A DNA stretch of 63,403 nucleotides from Desulfatiglandales bacterium (GCA_035529575.1 DATKWM010000066.1:1-63403), one strand, 5' to 3'; positions 7,491-62,660 are shown, counted from the first letter of the stretch. Program-made: numbers and translations. The notes: generated by a model from the letters alone, not told the origin.

Positions 7491-7717
7491 AGACAAAAGG
7501 TATAGGTTTTTTAGTGTTCGTTTATGGGCCCCCGATGAAATAGGGATTCTGGACCACCATAAGTCTGGTGGGCAGGGTTCACTGAAAAAACATACCTGTC
7601 CCGATATAATCGGGAACCATATAAACGACTACATTAAATGTAATATTGACAAATACGTAAATTTATATTAAACGCTACAATCAAAAAGAGCACGTAATTT
7701 TACAGGAATTTTACTAA

Positions 7718-10313: not shown

Positions 10314-10384
10314 TAAAGAATCCACATCCAGAGGACGTGGTTTTACAAATTAATACAAACCAGAAAATTAAGGAGGAATATTGC

Positions 10385-12583: not shown

Positions 12584-12818
12584 CGCTTTCTCCTTTCTAA
12601 GGTATCTATAATAAACCTTATTAGTTAGCCCAAAAACCCTTTTCAGTAATCCGCCTTACAGGTTTAGCAATTATCTTTATACTTAAATTTGCACGTCAGT
12701 TCAACTGCGGATTTACATGCCTTCAGATATCTATTTAGCATCTAATTCTCAAAGAAAAAATCCAGAAGTCACCTTCTGGATTTTTTCTTTTCCCATCTCT
12801 ACTATTTATTGTTTTTAT

Positions 12819-13955: not shown

Positions 13956-13997
13956 AATTTTCCTCCTTTTTTTGGTTAAAATTTACTATTTTCTTGC

Positions 13998-15104: not shown

Positions 15105-15339
15105 CTTAATCCTCCTTATTTGTTAGTAGTTAGTTGTCAGTTGTTCGTAGTATTTTTCTTTTAAGCATTTACTATAAAAAATATAATTTAGTGTCTCTTG
15201 AAAAATCCCATCTGCCCTCCCTTTTTAGCTATACCCAGCTTTTATAGTTATTGCTATAAGGTTGGATAAATAGATCTTTTCTGCTGATCTTGAAATAGGA
15301 GTTCAATGGACAACGGACAACAGGCAACGGGCATAATAA

Positions 15340-20898: not shown

Positions 20899-21033
20899 TA
20901 ATCAGCTTTTTTTTCTATACTCTTTAAAATCTTCCCAAATGCATATATTACCGCTATCAGTATTGCAAGGGAGGAAAAAACAGCACCTAAGCCAAAAGAA
21001 AATATCTTTACTGCAAGATTCCAATCAATCATG
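20899..21033 (-). CDS. Possible small single-TM decarboxylase subunit (OadG/GcdD-like)
   Basis: Hand-translated 44-aa ORF MIDWNLAVKIFSFGLGAVFSSLAILIAVIYAFGKILKSIEKKAD, below the cutoff of the ORF track. One TM helix. Positioned immediately upstream of the beta subunit gene. Confidence 0.4.
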
Positions 21034-21146
21034 ATAATAGGCTCCCTTTAAATTTAATACTATATGTTAGAAATTTTAAACCATGCTGAAATTATGAAGT
21101 TTTTAGAGGATTGATATATTTTTTTGAAGGTATTTCAGATAAAACT

Positions 21147-21170
21147 GCCCTGTCGATACTCAGACAGGGC
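21147..21170 (-). terminator. Possible intrinsic terminator or attenuator after the biotin-carrier gene
   Basis: GCCCTGTC (21147-21154) pairs with GACAGGGC (21163-21170). On the minus strand the stem is followed by AGTTTTATCT, a weak U tract. Confidence 0.35.
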
Positions 21171-41108: not shown

Positions 41109-41243
41109 GTTATGTAGCTATTGAGTTCGTAAGATTTTTATGCGAACAACTCAACAAACGTAAAAAATATCTAAGCAATGCTATAAGTGCAGCACGAAAA
41201 AACGTAGCATATATTTGAAGATCTTAGCTTTACGAGAAGTTTT

Positions 41244-41282
41244 GCGCCTGTAGCTCAGATGGATAGAGCAGCGGACTTCTAA
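41244..41282 (+). pseudogene. Displaced 5' half of tRNA-Arg(UCU), serving as attL of the integrative element
   Basis: The 39 nt GCGCCTGTAGCTCAGATGGATAGAGCAGCGGACTTCTAA match 62584-62622 except for one D-loop base (A versus C). Identity stops in the anticodon loop. Confidence 0.85.
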
Positions 41283-45457: not shown

Positions 45458-46864
45458 ATGCGTATTAATGATCAAATTACTCGAACAGCTCTAAGAGAAA
45501 TAATTGAAGATTTTGCTGGTGAAATAAATAATAAAAAAGATTTAGGGCCTAAACCTTCAAAAGCAGTAATAAATTATAGGAGAGAGCATATTGATGGAAA
45601 AGAAAGAGATGTCTATCAAGTTCCAATTGAATGTTTAAGGTTCAGAAAAGACAATGGGCGAATTACATCCGACATTAAAAGTTACGAAAAGTTACAAGAA
45701 CCGTTGTTAGAGAGGAGTGATAATGCGCAATCAGTCATTAGAAAATTATTAAAAGACAAGGATCCTGAGTTAACTAAAATCTTAAAAAATTCTATTCTAC
45801 ATTCTGGTCAACGTGACCCAGCGATTATAACATGTGATGGTTTTTTAATTAATGGTAATAGAAGAAAACTTGTATTGGAAGAACTATCTAAGCAAAAGAA
45901 AGAGTTCCAATTTATGAAGGTGGTTATTTTACCTGGGAAGAATGATCCTGGAGGTCCTCCTACATTACTTGAAATTGAACAAATAGAAAATAGATATCAG
46001 CTACAAAGTGAAGGTAAGGCAGAATATTATAAATTTGATCGAGCTTTATCAATTAGAAGAAAAATAGAACGAGGGATGAGCTTGGAGGAACAACTGCGAG
46101 ATGATCCCAACTATATAAATTTACCAACAAATGAATTTAGAAAAAAATTGAAAGAATATGAGGAAGAATATTTAAAACCATTAGATTGCATTGATAGATA
46201 TTTGGAATATTTAGGAAGGGATGGTCTTTACAATAGTATTTCTAAGGGTATTTCGGATAGAGAGGGGAGATGGCAGGCTTTCCTTGATTATTATAAATAT
46301 GTCTATACAAAATTGGAAGATGATAGAAAAAGAATGAATCTTGGGATTGAGGAGGATGAAAGTGGTGATGTCGAAGAAATAGCCTTTAAAATCATAAGGC
46401 AAAGAGATTTTCCAAATCTGCCAAAGGTTCATAAAATCATGAGGGATTTACCGAAATGGATTGGGGATAAGGATGCTAAAAAGGAATTATTTAAGCTCTT
46501 AGATATCGATTTAAAATTGTCCCCAGAAGAATGTTTTGATGATGAAGGTAATGAAATAGATGAGAGGAGAAAGGACTTAATATGGAACACTAAGCATCGT
46601 TCAACCTTGATCAATCAAGTAAAAAAAGCAAGGAGACTTTATGAGCGTGATAAAGAGAAGGAAACACCTATAACATTGTTAGAAGATGCTTTAAAGAAAC
46701 TCGAACATGAAAATATGCAACCTGACAGAATCAATATTACCGATCAACCTAGGGCGATGAAGTTGGCAAAGCAAATAAAAGAGGTGGCAAATCAATTAGA
46801 ATCAGAATTTTTTAGATGCATGAAGAACGTTAAAACGCTAAAGGATAAATATTCCAAGAAATAA
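45458..46864 (+). CDS. ParB/sulfiredoxin-fold N-terminal domain protein with a long helical C-terminal region
   Basis: 468 aa with a GGAGG RBS. VPIECLRFRKDNGR (aa 55-68) and GQRDPAIITCDGFLINGNRR (aa 117-136) fit ParB N-domain boxes, including the GxRR arginine patch. The remainder is Lys/Glu-rich and helical. Confidence 0.7.
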   Translation: MRINDQITRTALREIIEDFAGEINNKKDLGPKPSKAVINYRREHIDGKERDVYQVPIECLRFRKDNGRITSDIKSYEKLQEPLLERSDNAQSVIRKLLKDKDPELTKILKNSILHSGQRDPAIITCDGFLINGNRRKLVLEELSKQKKEFQFMKVVILPGKNDPGGPPTLLEIEQIENRYQLQSEGKAEYYKFDRALSIRRKIERGMSLEEQLRDDPNYINLPTNEFRKKLKEYEEEYLKPLDCIDRYLEYLGRDGLYNSISKGISDREGRWQAFLDYYKYVYTKLEDDRKRMNLGIEEDESGDVEEIAFKIIRQRDFPNLPKVHKIMRDLPKWIGDKDAKKELFKLLDIDLKLSPEECFDDEGNEIDERRKDLIWNTKHRSTLINQVKKARRLYERDKEKETPITLLEDALKKLEHENMQPDRINITDQPRAMKLAKQIKEVANQLESEFFRCMKNVKTLKDKYSKK

Positions 46865-46878
46865 TTAACAACTCTGTA

Positions 46879-48807
46879 GTGACTTATGTGGAATTAACCC
46901 CTTGGAGATTAAAGACAGAAATGATTGTGGATATTACAGAAGATAAGTTGTCTATCAAACAAAGTAAACATGCTCTTAAGCTAAGGCATATAAGTCAATT
47001 AGGTCACTGGGGGTTCTCAAGGAGTCCGGATGAGGACTATTTATTGCTTAATGATAATATTGAGTTTCTTCTGCCCAAAGTCCTTAGATATTTTAACAAA
47101 TCAAAAATTGAATATACGTTATCTCCTTCTTGTCAGAATCTAATAAAAGAAATTCAAGTCAAAGCAGATATATTAAAAAAAATATTAGAAGCAGGAAAGA
47201 ATTTTAAGGATGGGATTTATGATAAAGAGAGCTTTGATGAGCATGTACAATTTCTTAGTAATAATATCATAAGAAACCTTAAAGACCATCAGATAAAAGC
47301 ATCCTTCCATCTTTATTTAATTGGTAACGGTGCAAATTTTTCGGTTCCGGGTAGCGGAAAAACCACTGTCGTTTTAAGTGTATATGAAAAACTACGACTG
47401 CAGGAAAAAGTTAATACGTTATTTGTAGTTGGGCCTCCTGCTTGTTTCGGGCCGTGGAAAGCAGAATTTAAATCTGTTTTAGGTCGTGATCCAAATTATA
47501 GTATTTTAGCAGGTGGTAATCGAATAGTCCGAAAATCTGAATATTATAGACGTGATAATATTTATGATCTATATCTGACCACGTTTCAGACATTATTAAA
47601 TGATTTAGATGAGGTATGCATTTTTTTAAGTAACAAAAATGTTAATGCCTATTTTATTATTGATGAAGCACATTATATTAAACAGATTGACGGAAATTGG
47701 GCAAACGCCGTTCTTAAAGCAGCAGTATATTCAGAGTACAGATGTGTATTAACAGGTACTCCTATTCCAAAAAGTTATTCAGATCTATATAATCTATTCG
47801 ATTTCTTAGTGCCAGATAATCCACCTATAGGGCCAGCACATAAGATAAAGTTGCAACTCTTAGAAGAAGAAAAAGATTATGAGCATGCAAACGCTCTATT
47901 GGAGTCAAATATTGGTCCTCTTTTTTATAGGGTTAGGAAATCGGAATTAGGTTTGCAACCACAAGTTTTTCACGAGCCCGAAATTATTCGTATGAACCCA
48001 TATGAGAGGAAAATATATGATGCTATCATTCAAAAAATTAGCACTTATGCAAAAGATGACTTTTTAAAAAATATAGAGTTAGTTGTTAAATTAAGACGTG
48101 GCAGGATGATAAGATTAAGACAATGTCTATCATATACAAAGTTGTTAGATACAGCAATCGATGATTATGATGAGGATGTCCTAATAGAGGAGAATGATTT
48201 AAAATATTCAATAATAAATTATGATGAATTAGAAGCGCCAGCCAAATTAAACTATTTGATTGATATGGTGAAAAAATTTCAGAGAATAGAAGAAAAAATT
48301 GTTATATGGGCACATTTTATTGGAGCCATAAAGCTAATTGAGAGAAAATTAAAAGAGGAAGGATTTTATTGTAAAAAAATCATTGGAGAAACACCAGTAG
48401 AGAAAACATTAATAAGCGAGGAAGAGACAAGGGAAAAGATTATCAATGAATTTGTGAATAGTAAGAGCGGACTTGATATTTTATTGGCTAATCCTGCAGC
48501 CTGTTCTGAATCAATCTCGTTACATAAAACCTGTCATAACGCAGTTTATTACGACTTATCCTATAATTGTGCACAATATTTACAGTCCCTTGATAGGATT
48601 CATAGGGTAGGCGGATCAGAAGAATATCCAGCACATTATTATTTCCTTCACTATGCAGATACTATAGATCCGGATATCTTGTTAAATTTGAAAACGAAAG
48701 CTAGGAAAATGTATCAAGTCATAGAAGGCGACTATAATATTTATTCATTGGATATGTTTGAAGATAGTGATGAATTGGCTGCATATGAAAGAATATTCTA
48801 TGAGTAA
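46879..48807 (+). CDS. SNF2-family (SF2) helicase/translocase with an uncharacterised ~130-aa N-terminal domain
   Basis: Contains LKDHQ (Q-like), PGSGKT (motif I), DEAH (aa 262-265), LTGTP (III) and QSLDRIHRVGG (VI). The start is uncertain: either the GTG at 46879 or the ATG at 46921, which has GGAG upstream. Confidence 0.85.
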   Translation: MTYVELTPWRLKTEMIVDITEDKLSIKQSKHALKLRHISQLGHWGFSRSPDEDYLLLNDNIEFLLPKVLRYFNKSKIEYTLSPSCQNLIKEIQVKADILKKILEAGKNFKDGIYDKESFDEHVQFLSNNIIRNLKDHQIKASFHLYLIGNGANFSVPGSGKTTVVLSVYEKLRLQEKVNTLFVVGPPACFGPWKAEFKSVLGRDPNYSILAGGNRIVRKSEYYRRDNIYDLYLTTFQTLLNDLDEVCIFLSNKNVNAYFIIDEAHYIKQIDGNWANAVLKAAVYSEYRCVLTGTPIPKSYSDLYNLFDFLVPDNPPIGPAHKIKLQLLEEEKDYEHANALLESNIGPLFYRVRKSELGLQPQVFHEPEIIRMNPYERKIYDAIIQKISTYAKDDFLKNIELVVKLRRGRMIRLRQCLSYTKLLDTAIDDYDEDVLIEENDLKYSIINYDELEAPAKLNYLIDMVKKFQRIEEKIVIWAHFIGAIKLIERKLKEEGFYCKKIIGETPVEKTLISEEETREKIINEFVNSKSGLDILLANPAACSESISLHKTCHNAVYYDLSYNCAQYLQSLDRIHRVGGSEEYPAHYYFLHYADTIDPDILLNLKTKARKMYQVIEGDYNIYSLDMFEDSDELAAYERIFYE

Positions 48808-49769
48808 TGGATTCTTCATTTGAACATATTACATTTAAAAAAATTCAGATCTTATTAGAAATCATTTTTTCTTCTTCAGACCAAGATTATGAATTCATAA
48901 AACAAAAATTTCAATTAAGCGTAGATAAATTTGAAGCAGTAATGGAATTCTTAAATGCTTTAAGGTTGGTAAAAGTGAAAAGTGGAATTATAATATTATC
49001 AAATGATTTAAATAATATTTTTAGAAAGAATATTTTAAAAGATGATCTGATTAAGAGTTATTTATTAGAGAAAATTATGATTTCTTCTCATTCTTTTTCA
49101 CAAGAAGTCGCCGAATATTTAAGCAAGTTTAAAGTAAATGGCGATTCTTATGAGTACAAGCCTGCAACAAAGCAACGACTCAAAGAAAGCGGTATTCGAA
49201 ATTTATTTATTGAGCTGGATTTAGTCAATTATGATAAGATAAACGAAATTTATCGAATAGATGAAAAATACTTTTATATCTTTAGTGATTATGCTCTAGA
49301 AAGTAGCCTTACCCCCGAGGGGCTTTCTTGTTTACTTGCAAAGCGCGAAGAACTGGGAATGGTCGCTGAGTTAGTGATAGTTGAATATGAGCGAAAAAGG
49401 CTTGAAGGTTTTTCGGAATTACAAGATCAAATAGAACATACGGCTTCCTTAGATGTAAAAGCAGGTTATGATATAAAAAGTTTTGAAATTGAACCTTATA
49501 GTGAAGTAAAAATAATTCCCAGATATATTGAAGTCAAGGCTGTATCTAATTTTAATTTCAAATTTAGTTGGTCTAGAAATGAAATAGAAAGATCGAAATT
49601 ATTAGGGGAACAATATTATCTATATCTCTTGCCTGTTATTAGTGATAGACGGTTTGACTTAAAAAATATGAAAATAATCTCAAACCCTTACGAAAAAATA
49701 TTTAATAATTACGTAGACTGGAATAAACAAGAAGAGCAATATACAATTTGGCAGAGGATCCAAAATTGA
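48807..49769 (+). CDS. DUF3883-like (NO VEIN C-terminal type) PD-(D/E)xK-fold protein with an unknown N-terminal domain
   Basis: The ATG overlaps the TAA of the helicase gene (TAATG). The C-terminal half contains ELVIVEYERKRL, GYDIKS (D222), IEVKAV (E242-x-K244) and a following FSWSRNEIERS...YYLYLL segment, matching the DUF3883 pattern as I remember it. Confidence 0.6.
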   Translation: MDSSFEHITFKKIQILLEIIFSSSDQDYEFIKQKFQLSVDKFEAVMEFLNALRLVKVKSGIIILSNDLNNIFRKNILKDDLIKSYLLEKIMISSHSFSQEVAEYLSKFKVNGDSYEYKPATKQRLKESGIRNLFIELDLVNYDKINEIYRIDEKYFYIFSDYALESSLTPEGLSCLLAKREELGMVAELVIVEYERKRLEGFSELQDQIEHTASLDVKAGYDIKSFEIEPYSEVKIIPRYIEVKAVSNFNFKFSWSRNEIERSKLLGEQYYLYLLPVISDRRFDLKNMKIISNPYEKIFNNYVDWNKQEEQYTIWQRIQN

Positions 49770-49926
49770 AATAAGCAATATTTCCATAAAAAGGAAAGTT
49801 TAATGTAAATTAGTTTAAAATATACATTCAATATTTATTACTTCTTAATTCTTATTAACATCATTATTATTGTATTATCTGGAACTCCAACGGGGACAAT
49901 AAATTTTTATAAAAGATAAATATAAA

Positions 49927-50856
49927 ATGTCATCTCTTCAGGATTCAAAATCACAAGTAGGTAAAATTAAGCCACCATTCGGATATTATGGGGCCAAACA
50001 GAGGATCGCACGAAGAATTATTAATTCTCTCCCACCACATAATGCTTGGGTGGAAGCGTTCTGTGGTTCCGCAGCTATTACATTGGCAAAACCAATAGTG
50101 CCAATTGAAGTAATAAATGACATGGATAATCAGATTGTCAATTTATTTGTACAATTGAGAAATAACCCTACAGAACTCTGTAAAGCAATAAAATTAACCC
50201 CATACGCTCGTGCTGAGTTCCAACAAGCTCGTGTAAAAAGTGAAACGGTGATTGAACCCTTAGAAAAAGCACGTAGATTTCTTGTAGCAACAATGATGAC
50301 GGTAAATGGAACATATGGAGGAACTAATTCTGGTTTTTCATTCTCCCAGTCGTATGCACGTGAGAATAAGGAAGCAAGGGTAAACCGATGGTATAATCTA
50401 CCTAAACGCCTTGAAGATGTTGTAGATCGCCTTAGAAAAGTAAGAGTCGAAAATCGCGATGCTAGAGAGCTTATGGAAATGTTCATTGATAGACCAGCGA
50501 CTCTAGTCTATCTTGATCCACCATATTTTGTAAAACGTGGCCATAAATATTTTATCGATGCAAGTGATCAGGACTTCCACACAGATTTGCTGTCAATATG
50601 TAAAAAAGCGAAGTGTATGATTTTAATAAGTGGTTACGACAACGACCTCTATAATGGCCTATTAGACCCTAACGATGGATGGACTAAAGTTACAATCGCA
50701 ACTCAAACTCGGGATACAACAGGGAAAGATTTTGCACGTAGTGAAGTATTGTGGAAGAATAAATATTTTACAAGAGCAAAGGAGACTGGCAAAGTCCCGA
50801 TACGCTTATCAGCAAAAGAAAAGAAAAATAATAAAATAAACCCTCCCAGGAAATAG
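49927..50856 (+). CDS. Dam-class (D12, alpha-type) N6-adenine DNA methyltransferase
   Basis: 309 aa. FGYYGAKQRIA and EAFCGSAAI (FxGxG-type SAM motif) come first, followed by VYLDPPY (motif IV), which is the alpha-class order. Has a Lys-rich tail. Confidence 0.85.
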   Translation: MSSLQDSKSQVGKIKPPFGYYGAKQRIARRIINSLPPHNAWVEAFCGSAAITLAKPIVPIEVINDMDNQIVNLFVQLRNNPTELCKAIKLTPYARAEFQQARVKSETVIEPLEKARRFLVATMMTVNGTYGGTNSGFSFSQSYARENKEARVNRWYNLPKRLEDVVDRLRKVRVENRDARELMEMFIDRPATLVYLDPPYFVKRGHKYFIDASDQDFHTDLLSICKKAKCMILISGYDNDLYNGLLDPNDGWTKVTIATQTRDTTGKDFARSEVLWKNKYFTRAKETGKVPIRLSAKEKKNNKINPPRK

Positions 50857-51498: not shown

Positions 51499-52284
51499 TT
51501 GAATACTGAAATAAAATCAGTTAAGATCCCTGTCATGGCACGATTAAGCTCTCTCGAAAAACGTTATAGGCGCAGACGAAAGGTTCTCCAGGGATTCCCC
51601 TGGGAGGGTAAATTTCAGGCCAAAGAGGAGGTCTATAAGTATTTTTCAGGCGATAGGATCCAGTGCCTACTGTGCGGAAAATGGTTTAAGAGGCTTCCCA
51701 CCCATTTAACAGCGATACACGACATGACCTCTGATGAATACAGGGAACTTTATGGCCTGCCCTGGAAGCGTGGATTGTGCAGCAGAGACCATAGTCTGAA
51801 GCTCAGTGAAAACTTGAAAAAAAGGCACGCCAATGGATTCCGACCGGATTTAGAAACCGCACGAGCGAGCATCAACCATTCAAAGCGAAGGCCTGATCAA
51901 CCGTTTTTTACAAAAATCAGGGCTGAGAATGTCATATCAGGTAACAAGAGAAGGAAAAAATATTTCCCTGAAGATTTTCAAAACGTTTTAAAAAGAATAC
52001 TGGATGAGCATAAAACCCTTGCTGAAGTCTATAGAGATCCTGACATGCCTACTGAAAATGCAATTTATCGCTATTGTAAAAGAAATCAAGAATTCAGAAA
52101 AGCGCTTGATGTAATATACGAAAAGCTTCCCTTTTCTGTACAGGCACGAGCAAACAAGCTATCTGAAGACAAATTTAGAAAAGCAATATTAAGCCTTCAG
52201 CAATCTGGTTTTTCAATTTCTGAAATCTCAAGATTTTTAGGGGTGGGTGACAATACGATTAGACGTAGGTTGAATTCAAAATGA
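51499..52284 (+). CDS. MucR/Ros-family zinc-finger regulator with an extra C-terminal HTH
   Basis: CLLCGKWFKRLPTHLTAIHDMTSDEYRELYGLPWKRGL matches the Ros/MucR C2H2 finger and its flanking motif. The C-terminal ISEISRFLGVGDNTIRRRL looks like an HTH. The start (TTG at 51499 or an internal ATG) is uncertain. Confidence 0.65.
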   Translation: MNTEIKSVKIPVMARLSSLEKRYRRRRKVLQGFPWEGKFQAKEEVYKYFSGDRIQCLLCGKWFKRLPTHLTAIHDMTSDEYRELYGLPWKRGLCSRDHSLKLSENLKKRHANGFRPDLETARASINHSKRRPDQPFFTKIRAENVISGNKRRKKYFPEDFQNVLKRILDEHKTLAEVYRDPDMPTENAIYRYCKRNQEFRKALDVIYEKLPFSVQARANKLSEDKFRKAILSLQQSGFSISEISRFLGVGDNTIRRRLNSK

Positions 52285-53535: not shown

Positions 53536-53766
53536 ATGAGCTTTTTTTATGGGAGCAAAGGCATGCAAAAACAATATCTGACAGAAAGGGAGGTTTCCAA
53601 GTTAACTGGCAGGGCTTTGAGCACTTTAAGAAATGACCGTCAAAATGGAGTTGGATTTCCTTATGTGAAATGGGGCCGATTCGTAAGGTATAGGAAGCAA
53701 GATGTCATTGAATTTATGGAAGCACGGAAGGTTATACCTGAAAATGAGGGACCTAAAAATGAATAA
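53536..53766 (+). CDS. AlpA/excisionase-family HTH protein
   Basis: YLTEREVSKLTGRALSTLRNDRQNGVGFPYVKWGRFVRYRKQDVIEF matches the Xis/AlpA/MerR-type HTH pattern. The probable true start is the internal ATG (MQKQYL). Confidence 0.6.
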   Translation: MSFFYGSKGMQKQYLTEREVSKLTGRALSTLRNDRQNGVGFPYVKWGRFVRYRKQDVIEFMEARKVIPENEGPKNE

Positions 53767-53983
53767 AAAAGAAGAAAAGGTGCGAAAGAGAGACCTATCA
53801 CTTCAATCTTTCTATCTGAAAGTGCATGGGCTGGTTAAAGGACTTGAGTCTAAATATCCAGAATTAAAGTTAGTTAATGATGAACCCAGCAACAAGCCTT
53901 TAGCAAGGAGTAATATCCTTTACCTACATAGAATAGGAGAGGCTAAAAATGCAGAATCAGGCAAGGCTAAAAACCGTGGATAA
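53759..53983 (+). CDS. Hypothetical small protein
   Basis: The ATG at 53759 overlaps the preceding stop codon region. It is the 74-aa version of the tracked 53702-53983 ORF, and its 3' end overlaps the start of the next gene. Confidence 0.35.
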   Translation: MNKKEEKVRKRDLSLQSFYLKVHGLVKGLESKYPELKLVNDEPSNKPLARSNILYLHRIGEAKNAESGKAKNRG

Positions 53984-54980
53984 GCCAAAAACAGCGGAAG
54001 AGGCAAGCCGGAACTTTGAAGAGCATTTGAGGCTTACATGTCCGAATTGGACTGAAAGGCAGATTATAGTTGCCTTGGATGATCATCGAGTTAAAAACCT
54101 TGGGCTCCCGCCATTAGCTGAATCAAATCTTACAAAAGAAATTGAAGAGTGGATCTCACGTCTTGATGGTGAATTTCAAACAAGGGAAGTCTTTGACGAG
54201 CTGGCAATTCCCATCAACAAAAAAGGTACTGTCTCAAAGATCCTGGCACGCCTTATTGAGAAACGGATTATTGAACGAAGCGGTAAACAGAGGGGCCGCT
54301 TTCGACGTGTTGAAACAGAATTAGACTTAATAGACATCTTTAACTGTGATGAAAAGACGGTCAATATTCAACTGCCTTTAGGGATTCACGAGTTTGCAGA
54401 GATCATGCCTGGAAATATTATCATAGTGGCCGGTGAGCCCAATATGGGAAAGACAGCACTCTTACTCAACATAGCTGCAAGCAATATGTATGATTTTGAT
54501 GTCTCTTACTTCTCATCTGAAATGGGGGACCGGGAGCTAAAAAAACGGCTCAAGCTATTTGAGGATGTTCCTTTTAAGGACTGGCGAAAATTCAAACCTT
54601 ATGCCAGGAGCGAGAACTTTGCAGATGTTGTTAAATCAGGAGAAGGCAGTTTAAATCTTATTGATTTTTTAGAAATCCATGACGAATTTTACCTTGTAGC
54701 AAAATACATCTATGAAATTTATCGAAAGCTCAATGGCGCCGTGGCAGTAATCGCTTTACAGAAAAACCCGGGCACACCCTACCCATTAGGAGGCGTGAGG
54801 AGCTTGGAAAAAGCACGGCTGGCAATAACCCTTGAAAGGCACAATAAAACTAATGTGGCCGTCATTCGTAAACTCAAGAATTGGAAAGGCAAGGAAAATC
54901 CAAACGGTAAACAGATACAATTCAAGCTCGTACAGGGGTACAAATTCATTACTTCGGATGTTTGGTCAACTATAGAATGA
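53949..54980 (+). CDS. Replication protein with a DnaB-C-terminal/RecA-like ATPase domain
   Basis: Walker A segment GEPNMGKTALLLNIA, followed by YFSSEM (compare DnaB FSLEM), IDFLEI and IALQKN segments. The N-terminal region looks wHTH-like. Confidence 0.65.
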   Translation: MQNQARLKTVDKPKTAEEASRNFEEHLRLTCPNWTERQIIVALDDHRVKNLGLPPLAESNLTKEIEEWISRLDGEFQTREVFDELAIPINKKGTVSKILARLIEKRIIERSGKQRGRFRRVETELDLIDIFNCDEKTVNIQLPLGIHEFAEIMPGNIIIVAGEPNMGKTALLLNIAASNMYDFDVSYFSSEMGDRELKKRLKLFEDVPFKDWRKFKPYARSENFADVVKSGEGSLNLIDFLEIHDEFYLVAKYIYEIYRKLNGAVAVIALQKNPGTPYPLGGVRSLEKARLAITLERHNKTNVAVIRKLKNWKGKENPNGKQIQFKLVQGYKFITSDVWSTIE

Positions 54981-55266: not shown

Positions 55267-55506
55267 ATGGCGGCTAAAAACCATAACACCAAAGGCTTAA
55301 AAAAGGCGCAAGGGATATACAATCCTTTGACCAAGAGGCTTTTTGATTTGAAAGAGGCGAGTGTTTACCTGGGAAGGCCGGTCTTTAGTGTGCGTACCCT
55401 TATATGGAAAGGAGTTTTACCTTGCGTCAAAGATGGGAGGAAACTCTATTTAGATATCCATGACATGGATGCTTATATCGAAATAAACAAAGAGCGGATG
55501 GTGTGA
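55267..55506 (+). CDS. Excisionase-family HTH protein
   Basis: 79 aa. LFDLKEASVYLGRPVFSVRTLIWKGVLPCVKDGRKLYLDIHDMDAYI fits the Xis-type HTH. An imperfect palindrome, TTTTGTGACAA/TTATCACAAAA, lies upstream at about 55210-55235. Confidence 0.6.
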   Translation: MAAKNHNTKGLKKAQGIYNPLTKRLFDLKEASVYLGRPVFSVRTLIWKGVLPCVKDGRKLYLDIHDMDAYIEINKERMV

Positions 55507-55694
55507 GAGGGGCAATGAGCGAGGGAAGGATAAAAAAGGTACTTGCAAAATATATTTTTTCAAAGCCGTTTCCGTCAGCTCGATATTCGCCTACTTGTAA
55601 CAATAAATTCGAGGTACACAATACACAATTCAACGCTCAGGTGAGAGATAATGATATTTATCGGAAAACCTTTAAATTTATAGAGGCATTATAA
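55503..55694 (+). CDS. Hypothetical small protein
   Basis: 63-aa ORF with a GTG start. It overlaps both neighbours by a few nt (its stop TAA shares its last base with the next ATG, TAATG). No motif recognised. Confidence 0.25.
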   Translation: MRGAMSEGRIKKVLAKYIFSKPFPSARYSPTCNNKFEVHNTQFNAQVRDNDIYRKTFKFIEAL

Positions 55695-57310
55695 TGCAAT
55701 CAGCATCCGCAAATTTTTTAACAAAAAACGCTCTTGCGTATAAAAGCCCTGTATATCTAATTCATTTCGATGGTGAATCTACAGATTATGTGACCTCTGC
55801 ACAAATAGGGAATCCTGATAATACCTTGGATTCATGCATCAAAAAAATAGCTGGGGCTTCTCAGAAAATAACGCCAGAAGAAGGCCGTTCATCTATAGGG
55901 GAAATCACTGTATCAATATTGGATTATGATGATGAAATTACCGCTTTGATTGCAGGCGATACCTATAATCTCCATAGAAAAAAGACAACCATAAAAGCTG
56001 GGTATGCCGGAAATGATGAGGCCGATATGCTGACCATTTTTACCGGCTGGGTCACGGATATTCAATTATGGAGTGATGGTCTTGGATATGACATTACAAT
56101 TACGGACCTTCAGCGATGGATGCAAAGAAAAATATTCCGGGATTCAGAAACAACGCCGGTAGTTTTTGGTGGCAATCCCATGACGATATTACTCAGGATT
56201 CTTACCTCTACCGGGGCCGGAACAAATGGAGATTATGATACTCTTGCCGCTAAAAATGCCCTGGGTATAGATGATGATCTCATAGCTGTCAATCATATAG
56301 AAGCTGAGCGCGATAAATGGTTCGCGGGCGTAAATTTATCTTTTGATATTCGGGAAAGAATCACGGCAAAAAAGTTTCTTGAAGAGGAAATCTTTAAGCC
56401 TTGCAATATCTATCCAATCATAAAGGGAGATGGCACATTCGATATAAAAGTTTTCCGGCCACCATTGCCTGAAGAGTGGGGAGATGTTCAAACCTTTGAT
56501 GAGGATACAATAATTGGGATTCCGAAATGGAACCAAAATTTGAGCGGGATGATAAATGAATGTGAATTTGATTATGATTATGATGCAGACAATGAGGAAT
56601 TTGATACACAAACATTTTTCCTGGATAGCACTTCCATTACAAACCGTGGGCCTGGTAAGAAAGCTCTTAAAATAGAATCAAAGGGAATTACCACAGCAAA
56701 AAGCGGATTGGAATTTATCACGAGAAGAAAAAAGAGGGTATTCAATCGATACGCTAATGGTCCACCTCCTGAATTAAGTTTTTCTACCTTTTTCAATAGG
56801 CAACTTTCTGAGGCTGGTGATGTTGTGCCTATTACCCATTTCCTTGTACCAAATTTAGAGACAGGTGCAAGAGGAATTACAAGAAAATATCTTGAAATCA
56901 TAAATCGTTCTATCGATTGGCAAAAAGGCCAATGTAAATTTACCATGCTTCATACTCAATATGATGGGAAAAAATATGCAGTTATTAGTCCAGCAGGAAC
57001 GGTTTTATCTGGTGCAAGTACAACTATTTTTACCCTCGAAACCGATGAAGGGGCAAAGTTTGAGGAAGGCTGGGTAATAGATATATTTTTTAAAAATATG
57101 GTGGCAGTGGCAACAAATTTGACGATTACCGATATTACAGGAGATCAAATAACCGTGGGCTCTTCTATAGGTGCAACACCGGCGGCAGGTTGGAAGATTA
57201 GCTTTTCGACTTACGATAATTGCACCACTGAGCAAAAGGATTTTGCTTTCATAGCTGATGGCTCAAACAATCTCGGGGCAGCAGATGATGATCCCTATTA
57301 TATCTATTAG
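55694..57310 (+). CDS. Hypothetical 538-aa protein (possibly phage-structural-like)
   Basis: Long uninterrupted ORF with moderate complexity. No catalytic motif recognised. The structural or tail-like idea is only an impression. Confidence 0.6.
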   Translation: MQSASANFLTKNALAYKSPVYLIHFDGESTDYVTSAQIGNPDNTLDSCIKKIAGASQKITPEEGRSSIGEITVSILDYDDEITALIAGDTYNLHRKKTTIKAGYAGNDEADMLTIFTGWVTDIQLWSDGLGYDITITDLQRWMQRKIFRDSETTPVVFGGNPMTILLRILTSTGAGTNGDYDTLAAKNALGIDDDLIAVNHIEAERDKWFAGVNLSFDIRERITAKKFLEEEIFKPCNIYPIIKGDGTFDIKVFRPPLPEEWGDVQTFDEDTIIGIPKWNQNLSGMINECEFDYDYDADNEEFDTQTFFLDSTSITNRGPGKKALKIESKGITTAKSGLEFITRRKKRVFNRYANGPPPELSFSTFFNRQLSEAGDVVPITHFLVPNLETGARGITRKYLEIINRSIDWQKGQCKFTMLHTQYDGKKYAVISPAGTVLSGASTTIFTLETDEGAKFEEGWVIDIFFKNMVAVATNLTITDITGDQITVGSSIGATPAAGWKISFSTYDNCTTEQKDFAFIADGSNNLGAADDDPYYIY

Positions 57311-57447
57311 GAGAAACTATGGCTCAGATTTCAAGGAAAAACAAAAGGTGAAGGTTCACCTACATGGGATATAGAGATCGTTGAAATTTGAGGGCAAAAT
57401 GGCGCTATTTGAGAGGTGTGGAGGGATAATTCGGAGACGGTCAATAT

Positions 57448-57748: not shown

Positions 57749-58915
57749 TCAGCGGAGCTGAACATCCATCCAATCAGGAATTCCACTCTTCACAAAGCGC
57801 CTGATCGCATCCGCCACTAAAGAATAACCATTGTTTAGAGTTTCAGATATATCTTTACTCTTTAAAGCATCAGGAGGCACACGTCCAGTATGTATGGCTA
57901 TTGATCGTAGTTTATATAAATCGCCAATTAGACGAAACACTTCTTCTCGCTTGGTTATTTCTTTCTCTATATACTTAGCAACTCTCAATTTTAATCGAAA
58001 AGTGAGTTCACCACGATCATCAGACAGATCACTCAGGAAAAGGGATTCAAGAGCTATACCAAGATTAATTGCACTATCTACTTTGGATGATCTTCGAATA
58101 GCCATAGCCAAACGTTGCATAGGTAAACGAAGAGCATCCTTCTTATCCTCAGTTAATGATTCAAAATCACTAAATAACTTAGTTACGATTTGACAATGCT
58201 CAGTCGTCCACACAGCATCTCGTACATGCTCGGCAGGGTGTGGTAATGAGTAGCCTACGCCAATTGTAGGAGCCCATTGAGGAGGATCAAGCCACGTCAC
58301 TATAACTTCGGGTGAAAAAGGACCTGACGCTGCAACACATAAAACTGCATCATTTATCGCCACATGATCTATTGGAGTTAGTTTGTATTCATTCTGAGAG
58401 ACATGCACTTTAGGGAGCAGTCTTTCCTGAACAAGAGCGGCACGAGGCAATCTTCCTAATGAAAAAAGATTATCGAAGATAGTGGGCTTATGATACGACT
58501 CAGGAATATCCGTCCAAGACAGAAGAGAAATTCCACTTCCTAATTCACAACGATGTTTTACTTTTAGTCCACGTAATCCATAAGTCAGACGAAATGGGAT
58601 TTTATCGGATTCAATATATTGTATGAGATCAGAAACAGCTTGGACAGAACCTACTTCTTTTCCTCTTCGAAATAGCCAAACTGCTAAGTCACGTATTTCC
58701 ATGCGAGTGGCACTACCTGCAATTACCTGCATTTTGCCATTAAAAATCTGCAATTCATCTTGAGAGTGGAGGGATTCAAGCAAGGACCCAATTGTTGGTT
58801 CATACTTAGCAGGATCATTCACTTGGAAGAAATGGGCAAAATCTTCATTATTTTTATCGTTCTTACTTGCATTTAAGCAGGCTTGCAATTTACTTGCTAT
58901 TAGTTTCTTTTCCAT
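57749..58915 (-). CDS. HEPN-domain protein (ApeA-like candidate abortive-infection RNase)
   Basis: 388 aa. The C-terminal helical domain contains LYKLRSIAIHTG, an Rx4H HEPN motif (R337-H342, nt 57890-57907), preceded by LGIALESLF. The N-terminal domain is uncharacterised. Confidence 0.65.
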   Translation of the reverse strand: MEKKLIASKLQACLNASKNDKNNEDFAHFFQVNDPAKYEPTIGSLLESLHSQDELQIFNGKMQVIAGSATRMEIRDLAVWLFRRGKEVGSVQAVSDLIQYIESDKIPFRLTYGLRGLKVKHRCELGSGISLLSWTDIPESYHKPTIFDNLFSLGRLPRAALVQERLLPKVHVSQNEYKLTPIDHVAINDAVLCVAASGPFSPEVIVTWLDPPQWAPTIGVGYSLPHPAEHVRDAVWTTEHCQIVTKLFSDFESLTEDKKDALRLPMQRLAMAIRRSSKVDSAINLGIALESLFLSDLSDDRGELTFRLKLRVAKYIEKEITKREEVFRLIGDLYKLRSIAIHTGRVPPDALKSKDISETLNNGYSLVADAIRRFVKSGIPDWMDVQLR

Positions 58916-58989
58916 GAATCTTCTTTTTCTTCGGATAGGTGTTGAATTCTTTTAGACTTTTTATACTCTTCTAAGCTTATTACTTTCAT
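58900..58989 (-). CDS. Truncated paralogue of the small ORF at 60523-60702
   Basis: Hand-translated 29 aa, MKVISLEEYKKSKRIQHLSEEKEDSWKRN. It shares MKVI.L.EY.K.KRIQ with the 59-aa copy and overlaps the HEPN gene start out of frame. Confidence 0.25.
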   Translation of the reverse strand: MKVISLEEYKKSKRIQHLSEEKEDSWKRN

Positions 58990-59175
58990 GGGGTCTGCTA
59001 CCCCTCTTTTGGATATGTTGAGCTCCTTTTTTACAAGGTTAGAATAGCATTTGAGGCCTGAAATGCAACGAAAAAGATAAAATGAATGATTACCTACATA
59101 GGGGTATGGAGATCGTGCAGCCTGGGGCGGGAAATGGCGTTATTTATGGGGTGTGAAGAACTATTTTGAGGACTT
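58935..59175. repeat. Direct repeat R1 (about 240 bp), paired with R2
   Basis: Near-identical to 60650-60888 across TTATTACTTTCATGGGGTCTGCTACCCCTCTTTTGG...GAAGAACTATTTTGAGG. A partial third copy lies at 57358-57425 plus 57655-57676. Confidence 0.85.
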
Positions 59176-59208
59176 TGATTTAGATTTTTCATGGTGATTT
59201 GAGGAATA

Positions 59209-59721
59209 TCATTCGGAATTCCCCTGCGATCTTGTCGCTTCCCATGTTTTGTAATCAAAAAGGATAGATGCAACAATAGATTGCTCAACAGAAAATTGAT
59301 CTGAAATTCTTACAACTTCATTAAAATATGCAGTTTTATCGAGTGCTAAAGTATCATAAAAGGAGAGTTGCATCTTGTCTTTCATTTCATCGGATGAGAT
59401 TCCTTTCTTTTTTTTCTCATTCGCTAATTTCATTAAACTATATGATGTATCTGTCTTAGATAGATAACTATCTATAATGCTCTCAATGATTTGTACATCT
59501 TTATTATACTTTACTGCTAATAATGCAACGATTTCTTGATCCGGCTTCCCAAAAAGCGATTGGAATTTTTCTTTCAATTCTATGGCTTTTTTTTGACGTT
59601 GTGATTCTTCTTCTCTATTTTCGCATGAGGATATCAGACAAATGGTTCCCAACATAGCAATAAAGAAAATATAATTCCACATTATCAAATTTGAGGAATG
59701 AGGCCTTAATAGACGATTCAT
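59209..59721 (-). CDS. Hypothetical lipoprotein
   Basis: 170 aa with an N-terminal hydrophobic helix ending in the lipobox-like LISSC. Confidence 0.5.
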   Translation of the reverse strand: MNRLLRPHSSNLIMWNYIFFIAMLGTICLISSCENREEESQRQKKAIELKEKFQSLFGKPDQEIVALLAVKYNKDVQIIESIIDSYLSKTDTSYSLMKLANEKKKKGISSDEMKDKMQLSFYDTLALDKTAYFNEVVRISDQFSVEQSIVASILFDYKTWEATRSQGNSE

Positions 59722-59815
59722 AACACCTTCGATTAAGGGTTATTTGGCACTAATTGTTCTTTGAAAACGTGAATAGATGGGGAGATAGCAACCAATGTTG
59801 TTTGATGTATTGGAT

Positions 59816-60409
59816 TCACCAAATTTGGAGACATCTAACAATACCTTCTTCGTTGTAATGTAGAAGCCATATCTCTGCAAACCAATGTCCCAGTGGAATC
59901 CATTGTGAAAGTTGTCTATGCGTAGCATCTTCTTTGTCCTTTATGCCTAACCTCTTGTTTAATTGTTTATGTTCCTCAAGCATTTTATCTCTTTCAAGAC
60001 GATTCTTCTTATAAAATTCTGGGTCAGATATTCTTATGCGTCCAAAACCCCTACCATCGATTAATAAATGCCGAGAACAAACCACCTCTCCTAATGCTTG
60101 TCTTTCTACCGGGTCGATAATGTCTACTACTAATCGTGACCAGTTTATGTCTTTTACATCTTCTGCCCCTATGTTTGGCTCGACCACTTCTATTATTAAT
60201 CGTTTCTGAAGGCGAAGGAAAACCATCAGGTCGGCAAAAATAGGGTTCTGTTTCTTTCCTTCAGTAAAAGCCATTTGATAAATTTCAAGAGCTGGAAATT
60301 TGTGCTTTGGAATGCTAAACATACTCCTTCTTAAACATTCAAATTCATAGTGTGTACCTTTTCTAAGATTGTATTGCTCAACAAAAACCTGGACGATTCC
60401 TTTATCCAT
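59816..60409 (-). CDS. Hypothetical protein
   Basis: 197-aa ORF with no recognised motif. Confidence 0.5.
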   Translation of the reverse strand: MDKGIVQVFVEQYNLRKGTHYEFECLRRSMFSIPKHKFPALEIYQMAFTEGKKQNPIFADLMVFLRLQKRLIIEVVEPNIGAEDVKDINWSRLVVDIIDPVERQALGEVVCSRHLLIDGRGFGRIRISDPEFYKKNRLERDKMLEEHKQLNKRLGIKDKEDATHRQLSQWIPLGHWFAEIWLLHYNEEGIVRCLQIW

Positions 60410-60522: not shown

Positions 60523-60702
60523 TTAAATAGGTGTCTTTTTTGTAGGCGGCTCAGATTGCTTTTCTTTCAATTCTTCTAATCTCATCCTCTCGCGCAATCT
60601 TTGACGTAACTTCTCTTTGTATGCTTCTTTGTAAATCTCTCGCGCTGATACCCCTTGGATTCTCTTAGTTTTTCGATATTCCTGTAAGTTTATTACTTTC
60701 AT
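60523..60702 (-). CDS. Small basic protein (59 aa), conserved in duplicate
   Basis: Hand-translated MKVINLQEYRKTKRIQGVSAREIYKEAYKEKLRQRLRERMRLEELKEKQSEPPTKKTPI. It falls just below the ORF-track cutoff. A paralogous N-terminus is found at 58900-58989. Confidence 0.35.
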   Translation of the reverse strand: MKVINLQEYRKTKRIQGVSAREIYKEAYKEKLRQRLRERMRLEELKEKQSEPPTKKTPI

Positions 60703-60888
60703 GGGGTCTGCTACCCCTCTTTTGGGTATGTTGAGATACTTTTTTGCAAGGTTAGAATAGCATTTGTGGCCTGAAATGCAACGAAAAAGATAAAATGAAT
60801 GATTACCTACATAGGGGTATAGAGATCGTGCAGCCTGGGGCGGGAAATGGCGTTATTTTGGGGATGTGAAGAACTATTTTGAGGGCTT
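60650..60888. repeat. Direct repeat R2 (about 240 bp), paired with R1
   Basis: See R1. On the minus strand it contains a promoter-like TTGCAT...TATTCT followed by the small-ORF start. Confidence 0.85.
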
Positions 60889-61077
60889 AAAATTAAAGCA
60901 TTGAGAACAAATTTGATCTGCCTTTTCATAATCTGAGGGTGTAGGATAATCTATTTTGCCTAAAAATTCTTTTTTCTCAAACTTGTCAATAATCCATTTA
61001 TTACATTTATCAGGTATAAGGAAGTTATCGCAGTCACCACGCAAATGAAAATTGTCGCTTTGCTTTATTGTTGCCAT
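60874..61077 (-). CDS. Hypothetical Cys-containing small protein
   Basis: 67-aa ORF located downstream of the RHH gene on the same strand. Confidence 0.4.
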   Translation of the reverse strand: MATIKQSDNFHLRGDCDNFLIPDKCNKWIIDKFEKKEFLGKIDYPTPSDYEKADQICSQCFNFKPSK

Positions 61078-61501: not shown

Positions 61502-62593
61502 ATGGGAACCATTTACAAGAGAGGCCAGACCTACTGGTTAAAGTATTATCGTAACGGCAAGCCTTATTATGAATCTTCAAAGGGTAATCAAATAACGAAA
61601 GCAGAGAAATTACTTAAAAAAAGAGAAGGCGAAATAGCAGAAGGCAAACTACCCGGTGTCTACTTTGACCGGGTAAAGTTTGACGAGCTTGCAGAAGATT
61701 TTCTGAGAGATTACCGGATTAATCAGAAAAAATCACTTAGAAAGGCTATGCAAGTGATTAAGCACCTCAAAGGATATTTCAGAGGCTTTAAGGTAACACA
61801 GATTACCACGCCCAAAATACAGAACTATATCGAGGATCGCCTCGGGGAAGGTGCGGCAAATGGTACTATCAACCGGGAATTGGCAGCATTAAAGCGTATG
61901 CTAAATTTAGGCGCCCAACAAACGCCACCCAAAGTTGACAGGGTCCCTTATATTCCTATGCTGAAAGAAAATAACATACGTAAAGGCTTTTTTGAACATG
62001 GGGACTTTATCGCGCTAAGGGATGCCCTCCCCTCTTATCTAAAGGGATTTGTTACATTTGCTTATAAGGAGGGATGGAGAGTATCAGAGATAGAAGGCCT
62101 CACATGGAATCAAGTTGACCGTGACCAGGGCATTGTAAGGCTCGAAGGAGACCAGGCAAAAAATGAGGAGGCACGGACAGTCTATCTTGATGAGGAATTG
62201 AGGAAAATATTTAACAATCAATGGGAGGAAAGGAAAAAAGAAGGGAAGATAACTCCCTATGTTTTTCTTGCCTGGAATGATAAAGATATGATAAAGGGAT
62301 TTAGGAAGACATGGGATAAGGCTTGTAAGGATGCTGGTATTGGTAAAAAACTCTTCCATGACCTTAGAAGGACAGCTGTCAGAAACATGGTAAGAGCAGG
62401 TATCCCTGAGAGAGTCGCTATGATGGTATCAGGACATAAGACACGATCAGTATTTGAGCGATATAATATTGTCAATGATACTGACTTGAAAATGGCAGCA
62501 CAAAAACAAGCCGCATATTTAGAGGCTCAGACAGTTACAAAAACGGTTACAGTCGAGAATTTGAAAGACAGGAAAGCCACATTGCGCCTGTAG
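61502..62593 (+). CDS. int: Tyrosine recombinase (phage-type integrase)
   Basis: 363 aa with an AAGGAG RBS. Catalytic residues fall in the expected context: R in EGWRVSE, HDLRRT, GHKT and the Tyr in FERYNIV. The last 10 nt, including the stop codon, lie inside the tRNA gene. Confidence 0.9.
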
Positions 62594-62660
62594 CTCAGCT
62601 GGATAGAGCAGCGGACTTCTAATCCGCAGGCCGGGGGTCCGAATCCCTCCAGGCGCACCA
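62584..62660 (+). tRNA. tRNA-Arg (anticodon UCU), containing attR
   Basis: Cloverleaf folded by hand. Acceptor GCGCCTG/CAGGCGC, D arm GCTC-AGCTGGATA-GAGC, anticodon stem GCGGA/TCCGC with loop CT-TCT-AA, T arm GGGGG-TCCGAAT-CCCTC, discriminator A, and an encoded CCA. Confidence 0.9.

Follow-up and report, generated by a model that had tools for sequence, protein, structure and literature searches.

The subject of this analysis is a cassette of four genes located at positions 45458-50856 of a 63,403-nt stretch of DNA from a Desulfatiglandales bacterium (GCA_035529575.1, DATKWM010000066.1:1-63403). The whole stretch is referred to below as the window and all coordinates are counted from its first nucleotide. 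The four open reading frames (ORFs) are encoded on the plus strand. The first one, gA (45458-46864), codes for a 468-aa ParB-like protein which is also AbiRb-like, as detailed below. It is followed by gB (46879-48807, GTG start), coding for a 642-aa SNF2-family ATPase of the AbiRc type, by gC (48807-49769), coding for a 320-aa protein in which a winged helix-turn-helix (wHTH) part is combined with a DUF3883/NOV_C nuclease, the candidate effector, and by gD (49927-50856), coding for a 309-aa D12-class methyltransferase. An earlier note on this DNA had described four ORFs on the same strand, a 14-nt gap, a TAATG overlap and a methylase gap of about 160 nt, and had quoted a series of motifs. This layout was borne out: 14 nt separate the gA stop from the gB start, the gB stop and the gC start overlap by one base within TAATG, and the gap preceding the methylase gene is an AT-rich spacer of 157 nt (49770-49926, plus strand). 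The quoted motifs are all present in the translations of gA to gD. No terminator-like site was found inside the 157-nt spacer, and the spacer may permit expression of the methylase on its own.

The same note had placed the genes in the most AT-rich part of the DNA, which agrees with the measured composition: the GC content is 0.29-0.34 between 45 and 50 kb versus about 0.40 elsewhere in the window. A step in GC content was observed within the cassette at 49770-50100, the values being 0.25-0.36 for gA to gC and 0.38-0.40 for the methylase gene, with a rise from about 0.26 to 0.39 at the spacer junction; this step is consistent with a methylase gained as a separate module. Directly 5' of the cassette, the segment 44258-45457 is devoid of ORFs above 63 aa and of Rfam or tRNA matches, and the GC content drops from 0.41-0.49 to 0.30 across it.

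The gA protein displays a ParB/Srx-type N-domain (residues ~50-205), a helical middle part and a long C-terminal coiled coil. The N-domain carries the motifs FRKDNGRI, DGFLINGNRR and ENRYQLQ, and the motif GQRDPAIITCDGFLINGNRR is present in the translation. Four blocks are invariant across the family (FRKDNGRI, AIIT-DGFLINGNRR, ENRYQLQ and GRWQAF) and gA is the most conserved component of the cassette, with a mean identity of 0.51. The N-G-R box, GNRR and E-N-x-Q of gA are what we take to be the nucleotide-binding boxes of ParB CTPases. More than 1560 protein clusters match the family, the best 120 listed being 55-90% identical, and in a 50%-identity library 1647 clusters match gA at E <=1e-3 and 128 at <=1e-30.

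The ParB fold proposed for gA in the earlier note is upheld by structure prediction and by remote homology, and finds no counterpart in the profile libraries. No match to gA was obtained in Pfam (including ParBc and DUF262), NCBIfam, PADLOC v2 or PHROGs, and sequence searches of the PDB with gA, with the gA family profile and with the AbiRb profile returned nothing significant, apart from weak helix-turn-helix (HTH) hints following the ParB domain. When the AlphaFold2 (AF2) model of gA (pLDDT 86.6) was submitted to Foldseek, the top PDB entries were the N-terminal part of the pNOB8 ParB (5k5d; probability 0.99, E 0.024) and Spo0J (1vz0; probability 0.98). The E-values of the full-length model are weak (0.02-0.06) because the model consists of several domains; the modelled N-domain fold and the conserved arginine motif therefore assign gA to the ParB/Srx superfamily at the fold level only. 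Residues ~50-205 also gave tblastn matches, down to 6e-13, in plasmid genes annotated by the NCBI as ParB/RepB/Spo0J or as 'ParB N-terminal domain-containing'. The C-terminal ~100 residues form two long helices in the AF2 model and look like a dimerisation element. In common with the ParB CTPase clamps and the ParB/Srx NTPases of defence systems (DndB, and the DUF262 proteins of GmrSD, BrxU and SspE), gA has the N-domain fold and arginine-rich motifs of the GxRR type and motifs of the E-N-x-Q type, and it also has a modelled DNA-binding-like helical middle part and a dimerisation-like C-terminal coiled coil. It differs from both the CTPases and the DUF262 NTPases by the lack of a ParBc or DUF262 match, by GNRR in place of GERR, by the lack of a ParA context and by its tie to an SNF2 motor.

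The SNF2, DUF3883-like and Dam-class assignments made earlier for the three remaining proteins are all backed by Pfam profile matches. For gB these are SNF2-rel_dom (9e-19), ResIII (3e-11) and Helicase_C (4.5e-7), and the motifs GSGKT, DEAH, LTGTP and QSLDRIHRVGG can be read in its translation. Residues 1-135 are variable, with a mean pairwise identity of 0.28 versus 0.56 for the core. The best PADLOC matches (ZorD at 5e-27, DpdE and DrmD, and also BrxH) cover the generic SNF2 core only, and the match to the PADLOC HmaA model (3.4e-5) is limited to about 100 residues. Among the PHROGs, gB matches phrog_62 at 2e-62.

The gC protein matches NOV_C/DUF3883 in Pfam (3.4e-12) and PDC-S36 in PADLOC (2.8e-11). 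It consists of two variable winged-helix domains (residues ~1-165) and a DUF3883/NOV_C nuclease of the PD-(D/E)xK type (~176-310), in which the motifs GYDIKS and IEVK are present. No variation was observed among 26 homologues at the catalytic residues D222, E242 and K244, nor at E188 and E195. The AF2 model (pLDDT 87) matches the fold of the Hjc resolvase 2eo0 (probability 0.95), of R.SwaI and of wHTH regulators. Mean pairwise identity is 0.21 over residues 1-115 and 0.41 over the nuclease domain.

Finally, gD matches MethyltransfD12 in Pfam (6e-20), MTase_II in PADLOC (8e-53) and phrog_56 (1.5e-58), and scores 72 bits against TIGR00571 dam, under the cut-off of 114.85. The motifs FCGSA and DPPY are present in its translation and its best PDB relative is DpnM (2dpm, 1.4e-7). 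It is thus predicted to be a Dam-like methyltransferase producing N6-methyladenine (m6A) and acting as the self-protection component.

In order to evaluate the linkage between these genes, the genes around gA relatives were mapped by tblastn, and the 60 unique loci with 1 kb or more of sequence upstream of gA and 4.3 kb or more downstream of it were retained. An SNF2 gene directly follows gA in all of them (60/60) and a DNA methyltransferase gene is adjacent in all of them as well (60/60). A DUF3883/NOV_C nuclease is found in 53 loci and a protein of the purine-nucleoside-phosphorylase (PNP) family in the 7 others, so that none lacks an effector. Recurrence in 60 of 60 loci is far above chance, and the proposal that the four genes form one functional unit is sustained by all the loci examined, which bear about 20 phylum-level labels. 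The junctions are tight. The gA to gB distance has a median of -4 nt and is at most 20 nt in 55/55 loci, the gB to gC distance is at most 5 nt in 55/55, and the gC to methylase distance elsewhere has a median of 0 nt and is at most 20 nt in 38/47. When about 185,000 species genomes were scanned (one genome per species), at least 154 contained a gA relative; in the protein libraries the family is represented by more than 1,500 clusters. The 80 loci fetched represent the ~20 phylum-level labels and come almost exclusively from metagenome-assembled genomes; these labels are reproduced as given in the databases and could not be confirmed. They include Bacteroidota, Chloroflexota, Nitrospirota, Planctomycetota, Omnitrophota, Patescibacteria, Acidobacteriota, Verrucomicrobiota, Thermodesulfobacteriota and Pseudomonadota, and some of the names in the protein database are archaeal. 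Toxin-antitoxin modules, AbiEii, Mrr and Cas1 are found next to the cassette in other loci.

The earlier note had made the DUF3883 nuclease one part of a split restriction function; the loci devoid of gC show that this part is not indispensable. Eight Bacteroidota loci (L048, L069, L071, L076, L079, L081, L087 and L090, at ~7150-7990), seven of which fall among the 60 counted, carry instead a gene for a PNP_UDP_1 protein of about 257 aa (1e-23 to 1e-26) that ends 3-4 nt 5' of gA. These proteins are highly conserved (67-85% identical) and match the PADLOC model 'Effector, PN-superfamily' at 3e-19. PNP-type domains serve as ATP nucleosidase effectors in CBASS and Detocs, and the gene represents an effector swap to a probable nucleotide-degrading enzyme.

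The methylase is exchangeable too. Its family is D12 in 41 of the 60 loci and PF01555 in 19. The PF01555 partners display SPPY and their best PDB relative is the N4-cytosine enzyme M.PvuII (3e-28), which makes them probable N4-methylcytosine (m4C) methylases. The gene lies downstream on the same strand in 53 loci, downstream in convergent orientation in 3 and upstream in 4. Loci with the same methylase class are hardly more similar in the other proteins than loci with different classes: for gC residues 1-115 the same-class and different-class mean identities are 0.224 and 0.200, for gB residues 1-135 they are 0.293 and 0.258 and for gA 0.525 and 0.492, the increments in the variable domains being no larger than those in the conserved cores. 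The methylase class therefore barely tracks the similarity of the three other proteins, which indicates repeated exchange. The logic reminiscent of restriction-modification (R-M) systems put forward earlier fits these observations, the methylase being a partner that is always required but can be exchanged. A common GATC target of all partner methylases, suggested by the DpnII-like and Sau3AI/MutH-like restriction endonucleases (REases) of distant loci, was found unsupported because the PF01555 partner with SPPY is closest to the N4-cytosine enzyme M.PvuII.

The cassette is mobile as a block. A segment of 5,285 bp containing all four genes, from about 40 nt 5' of gA to about 75 nt past the methylase stop, is 99.8-100% identical in four unrelated contexts (L003, L004, L005 and L007, at ~9960-15245), a pattern suggestive of site-specific mobility of the cassette, perhaps in the manner of an integron. 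A 317-aa tyrosine recombinase is encoded divergently just upstream of the block in several of the four. No full-length relatives were obtained from the phage and plasmid collections. In L005, a 144-nt piece of the 3' end of the block is found again about 6 kb downstream (21013-21155) with 90% identity.

Distant relatives of the gA-gB pair were also found in Firmicutes, with a C5-cytosine methylase in Streptococcus, Lactiplantibacillus and Lactococcus. The Streptococcus prophage Javan191 encodes an REase-like protein, a ParB-like protein (26%, 2e-19), an SNF2 protein (31.5%), a NOV_C protein (25% over the full length, 4e-10) that matches PADLOC PD-T4-1, and a convergent C5 methylase. A Lactiplantibacillus conjugative plasmid carries dcm, a ParB-like gene, an SNF2 gene (862 aa), an REase fragment and vsr. 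On contigs of Lactococcus lactis, genes for proteins of 820 aa, 398 aa (ParB-like) and 850 aa (PLDc_2 + SNF2) are accompanied by a convergent C5 methylase and by an REase of the MutH/Sau3AI type.

This last locus fits the published description of AbiR/LlaKR2I. On plasmid pKR223, AbiR, an old phage-resistance system of dairy lactococci, comprises AbiRa/i, a sigma-70-like protein of 820 aa, AbiRb/ii, a ParB-like protein with 5K5D as best structural match, and AbiRc/iii, in which an N-terminal nuclease precedes Snf2 (PMC13064643). The same review, with reference to Twomey 2000 and Yang 2006, describes AbiR as dependent on the LlaKR2I methylase, toxic in its absence and able to reduce phage DNA replication by a mechanism still unsolved (PMC13064643). 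The association of AbiR with R-M systems was reported by Makarova et al. 2013. The 398-aa and 820-aa protein clusters include AAF75618.1 and AAF75619.1, two entries that carry the label 'unknown [L. lactis subsp. lactis bv. diacetylactis]', which are almost certainly the original pKR223 AbiR ORFs. No PADLOC v2 model matches the lactococcal 820-aa or 398-aa proteins.

The gA protein matches AAF75618.1, the presumed AbiRb, at 1e-16 by BLASTP, and the alignment of the gA and AbiRb family profiles by hhalign reaches a probability of 99.8% (E 1.7e-29) over 368 columns corresponding to gA residues 47-453. The gB protein matches the lactococcal 850-aa protein at 6e-62 by BLASTP, with 28% identity over gB residues 33-618, a score far better than those of its PADLOC matches to ZorD, DpdE and DrmD. 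Judged by these comparisons, gA and gB are homologues of AbiRb and AbiRc. The gA protein and the ~400-aa ParB-like AbiRb are alike over their full length and have 5k5d in common as top fold match; gB belongs to the same SNF2 subfamily as the ATPase of AbiRc, including the region upstream of the motor. Both systems place the ParB-like gene before the SNF2 gene, overlapping or abutting, are obligatorily linked to a DNA methylase (by genomics here and by genetics for AbiR), contain a nuclease module and are carried on mobile DNA. The qualification 'undescribed' given to the cassette earlier was consequently too strong, since gA and gB are homologous to components of a system that was shown by experiment, according to the review, to be methylase-dependent and toxic without its methylase (PMC13064643).

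The two systems are nevertheless built differently. The N-terminal PLD nuclease of AbiRc is lacking in gB, which aligns from AbiRc residue 255 and gives no PLDc match, and the separate gC is found instead. AbiRa, the 820-aa sigma-70/HTH-like first gene product, has no counterpart in the cassette: tblastn finds none in the window or in any gA-family locus, nor is there an ORF of more than 63 aa in the 1.2 kb 5' of gA. The possibility that gC is a remnant of AbiRa was rejected, as there is no sequence similarity between the two. AbiR relies on a 5-methylcytosine (m5C) methylase that belongs to the complete Type II system beside it, whereas the cassette has a dedicated D12 (predicted m6A) or PF01555 (predicted m4C) enzyme. 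The cassette proteins are only 26-31% identical to those of AbiR, which is known from lactic acid bacteria, whereas the cassette resides in environmental bacteria of many phyla.

Yet another arrangement was found on two conjugative plasmids, from Enterococcus sp. DA9 (L096, 2029-10019) and from L. lactis (pIBB109_AgSa_3; L098, 3005-11019). Genes for a distant 423-aa ParB-like protein and a 620-aa DEAD/SNF2-type helicase are appended there, with overlapping genes, to a complete Type III Mod-Res operon, which is another route by which the ParB-like/helicase core is coupled to a methylase.

The cassette is best read as an AbiR-family, methylation-gated system directed against phages or other mobile genetic elements and carried as cargo on an integrative element, a reading to which we assign a probability of about 0.65. 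It is a widespread new architectural variant of AbiR, distant and differently built, which is mobile across many phyla. The defence and methylation part of the earlier interpretation is well backed. Comparative genomics outlines a ParB-like + SNF2 pair that is invariant and translationally coupled, a methylase that is never missing but differs in kind, and a single, presumably destructive effector that can be swapped, the effector domains being known from defence. The effectors accompanying the pair are gC in the window, a PNP-family enzyme elsewhere and the PLD nuclease in AbiR. Since the DUF3883 nuclease is replaced by the PNP enzyme or by a fused PLD nuclease, the conserved core consists of the ParB-like protein, the SNF2 protein and the methylase, with a plug-in effector.

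The proposed mechanism can be briefly summarized as follows. The methylase would mark the host DNA. A gA dimer would bind DNA through its ParB-type N-domain, probably as a nucleoside triphosphate (NTP)-gated switch or clamp, since the nucleotide-binding motifs GNRR and E-N-x-Q are retained, and would act together with the SNF2 motor translocating on double-stranded DNA. On DNA devoid of the mark, such as that of an incoming phage or plasmid, the complex would license the effector. In the window this effector, gC, would cleave DNA; in the PNP variant the nucleotide pool would be depleted, with an outcome of the abortive infection (Abi) type. Upon loss of the methylase the system would attack its host, so that the cassette would also behave as an addiction module.

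A broader and distinctly more tentative proposal, which we hold to be somewhat less probable than its opposite, is that the ParB-like/SNF2 pair forms the sensing core in a pan-prokaryotic kind of immunity standing between R-M and Abi, in which an NTP-gated clamp and a translocase sense the missing m6A, m4C or m5C mark and fire whichever effector is plugged in (PD-(D/E)xK, PLD or ATP-degrading PNP). If so, methylation would be read by a generic mechanism with no dedicated sequence-specific restriction subunit, and the 25-year-old puzzle of the methylase requirement of AbiR would be explained. The PNP variant predicts that missing methylation can be coupled to nucleotide depletion instead of DNA cleavage, which would blur the boundary between R-M and Abi. 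The homology also ties the orphan and mechanistically unsolved lactococcal AbiR (2000/2006) to a compact and highly conserved cassette missed by the annotation libraries tried. Three methylase chemistries and three effector types are found around one invariant ParB-like/SNF2 pair, and these module swaps therefore define which parts are the sensor, the self-marker and the effector. The cassette would provide a portable system of 5.3 kb for the study of a ParB-type NTPase switch in immunity.

A number of points weigh against the assignment of the cassette to AbiR-family defence. Defence, toxicity in the absence of the methylase and the methylase target are all inferred for this subfamily by comparison. 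The identification of AAF75618 and AAF75619 with AbiR rests on the organism, on the period from which the accessions date, on gene order and on the length of 820 aa given in the review. AbiRa and the PLD domain are absent, and the mechanism of the cassette may therefore differ from that of AbiR. The ParB assignment of gA is based on fold and remote homology, Pfam ParBc giving no match, and NTP binding is predicted only. No component was found to co-vary with the methylase class when gA, gB and gC were compared, though three chemically different marks are used. Lastly, the SNF2 gene is disrupted in about 7 of the 60 loci (L038, L043, L054, L055, L063, L083 and L092). In L083, an insertion of about 2.4 kb separates gA from the remainder of the SNF2 gene. 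The methylase is still intact in most of these loci, and the broken copies look like decay of the toxic part with the methylase kept.

The blueprint of motor, PD-(D/E)xK nuclease and methylase is that of R-M systems, and the cassette could accordingly be a Type III-like enzyme in pieces, with the methylase as a Mod-type recognition subunit, the SNF2 and DUF3883 proteins as a split Res cutting unmethylated sites, and gA as an accessory loader. Type III R-M likewise combines a superfamily 2 (SF2) ATPase, a PD-(D/E)xK nuclease and a self-protecting methylase; gB does match ResIII (3e-11), a methylase is adjacent in every locus (60/60), and related ParB-like + helicase pairs directly follow Type III Mod-Res genes on the Enterococcus and Lactococcus plasmids. 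However, Res is a single polypeptide relying on a large Mod with a target-recognition domain, whereas in the cassette the motor and the nuclease are separate and the methylase is a D12 enzyme of 309 aa. With ~300 aa the partner methylases are as small as Type II enzymes; they come from two or three unrelated families and are sometimes encoded upstream or on the opposite strand, and AbiR makes use of a methylase from the complete Type II system next to it. The replacement of the nuclease by PNP, which is not a nuclease, would not be tolerable for a sequence-specific restriction enzyme, and gA, an extra core protein and the most conserved part (0.51 mean identity), would be a mere accessory. This explanation is thus regarded as unlikely. 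It is still more improbable that the cassette serves as a counter-defence of the mobile element, akin to the polyvalent proteins or to Dar of phage P1, by which its own DNA would be methylated or remodelled on entry in order to escape host restriction. In polyvalent proteins, ParB-like, SNF2 and N6-adenine methylase domains count among the hub partners (PMC5512222). A precomputed match to PF18763 (ddrB-ParB) exists for a single gA homologue, gB and gD match phrog_62 and phrog_56, and the cassette itself is highly mobile. On the other hand, the search of 2.9 million IMG/VR viral contigs gave no gA relative. The only phage-collection records with both a gA-like and an SNF2 match are the Streptococcus prophage, which has the same form of the cassette, and two unannotated Listeria records of ~5 kb, the remaining phage SNF2 matches to gB being generic helicases of ~25% identity. 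A destructive effector, nuclease or PNP, is always present and would be superfluous for anti-restriction; the characterised homologue AbiR gives phage resistance and is toxic without its methylase; and no virion or type IV secretion system delivery context was observed.

The least credible explanation, to which hardly any weight is given, is element maintenance, with gA as a partition or segregation ParB and the other genes as unrelated cargo including an orphan methylase; the earlier note had offered maintenance by the ParB-like gene and an orphan methylase as its alternative. The fold of gA is of the ParB type and distant plasmid relatives are annotated by the NCBI as ParB/RepB/Spo0J partition proteins. 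In the present element, however, there is no ParA, nor is there one beside gA in the gene tables read for gA-family loci (other loci not being annotated gene by gene, and parS not having been searched for); the only ParA-type gene in these tables lies about 4 kb upstream (L004). A distant relative on an Exiguobacterium plasmid has two ParA genes about 1-3 kb 5' of its ParB-like-SNF2 pair. In most cases the cassette resides in the chromosome, and the 5.3-kb block moves without any replicon. Because gA and the SNF2 gene stay together in 60/60 loci, mostly through overlapping stop and start codons, and the linkage with the methylase is equally complete, this explanation was rejected.

The AbiR-family reading was also compared with the other defence systems that have components in common with the cassette. 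The core genes of DISARM, BREX, Dpd and Dnd/Ssp are lacking, as had been claimed, and so are those of Hma; PADLOC gives generic SNF2-domain matches only, to ZorD, DpdE and DrmD. Hma, a system related to Type-1 BREX, likewise combines an SNF2 motor, a DUF3883/NOV_C nuclease and a methylase. It is composed of HmaA, an SNF2-NOV_C fusion, HmaB, a DUF1156 methylase, and HmaC, a DUF499 ATPase (PMC11232893, PMC12839542), and HmaA (SNF2-Helicase_C-NOV_C) protects against T4 on its own (PMC11232893). It differs from the cassette in that the motor and the nuclease are fused in HmaA and split here, and in that it has no ParB-like protein; no DUF499 or DUF1156 match was found among the four proteins or their neighbours. 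DISARM (DrmD SNF2 protein with DrmMI/II) is similar in the use of an SNF2 ATPase for methylation-linked defence, and Zorya I in the use of one (the SNF2-nuclease ZorD) for defence. No DrmA, DrmB or DrmC is present in the element, the partial matches to DrmD and DrmA corresponding to the helicase C-lobe of gB only, and no ZorA, ZorB or ZorC was found in or near the cassette. PglZ and BrxC (BREX), DpdA (Dpd), and DndACDE and SspABCD (Dnd/Ssp) are absent from the cassette, where gA gives no PADLOC match. Near the cassette, the element encodes a regulator, a DnaB-like ATPase, HTH proteins resembling excisionases and proteins without an assignment. Neither the four-gene architecture nor the PNP variant was found described in the literature searched.

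The integrative element postulated in the earlier note could be delimited. A 41-nt direct repeat is present at 41242-41282 (plus strand), as a partial 5' half of tRNA-Arg and putative attL, and at 62582-62622, where it is the 5' half of the tRNA-Arg(TCT) gene (97.6% identity between the copies by blastn). This tRNA gene was located at 62584-62660 on the plus strand by ARAGORN and Rfam and is abutted by a tyrosine integrase gene (61502-62593, plus strand; Phage_integrase 3e-24). The repeats, the integrase and the tRNA delimit an integrative element of about 21.3 kb which carries the cassette as cargo; its right end was placed at 61502-62660 because the tRNA 5' half is the right copy of the repeat. 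A housekeeping protein with a match of more than 90% identity labels the host as a metagenome-assembled genome of Deltaproteobacteria type. The final codons of the integrase gene overlap the start of tRNA-Arg, and integration appears to take place in the 5' half of the tRNA gene and not in the more usual 3' end.

Downstream of the cassette, the element encodes a zinc-finger regulator of the Ros/MucR type with a fused HTH (51499-52284), two excisionase-like proteins of the HTH_17 family (53536-53766 and 55267-55506), a DnaB_C-like P-loop ATPase (53949-54980) and a 538-aa protein with a faint baseplate-hub match (55694-57310), a gene content reminiscent of a satellite or of an integrative mobilisable element. 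A direct repeat of 241 nt is found further downstream, the two copies (58942-59182 and 60655-60895) being 90% identical and spaced by 1713 nt, with a partial copy at 57366-57423, so that its 58-nt core occurs three times. Each 241-nt copy is located 5' of minus-strand ORFs without a Pfam match (57749-58915 and 59209-60409), and the repeats could be a repeated regulatory region or reflect duplicated gene modules.

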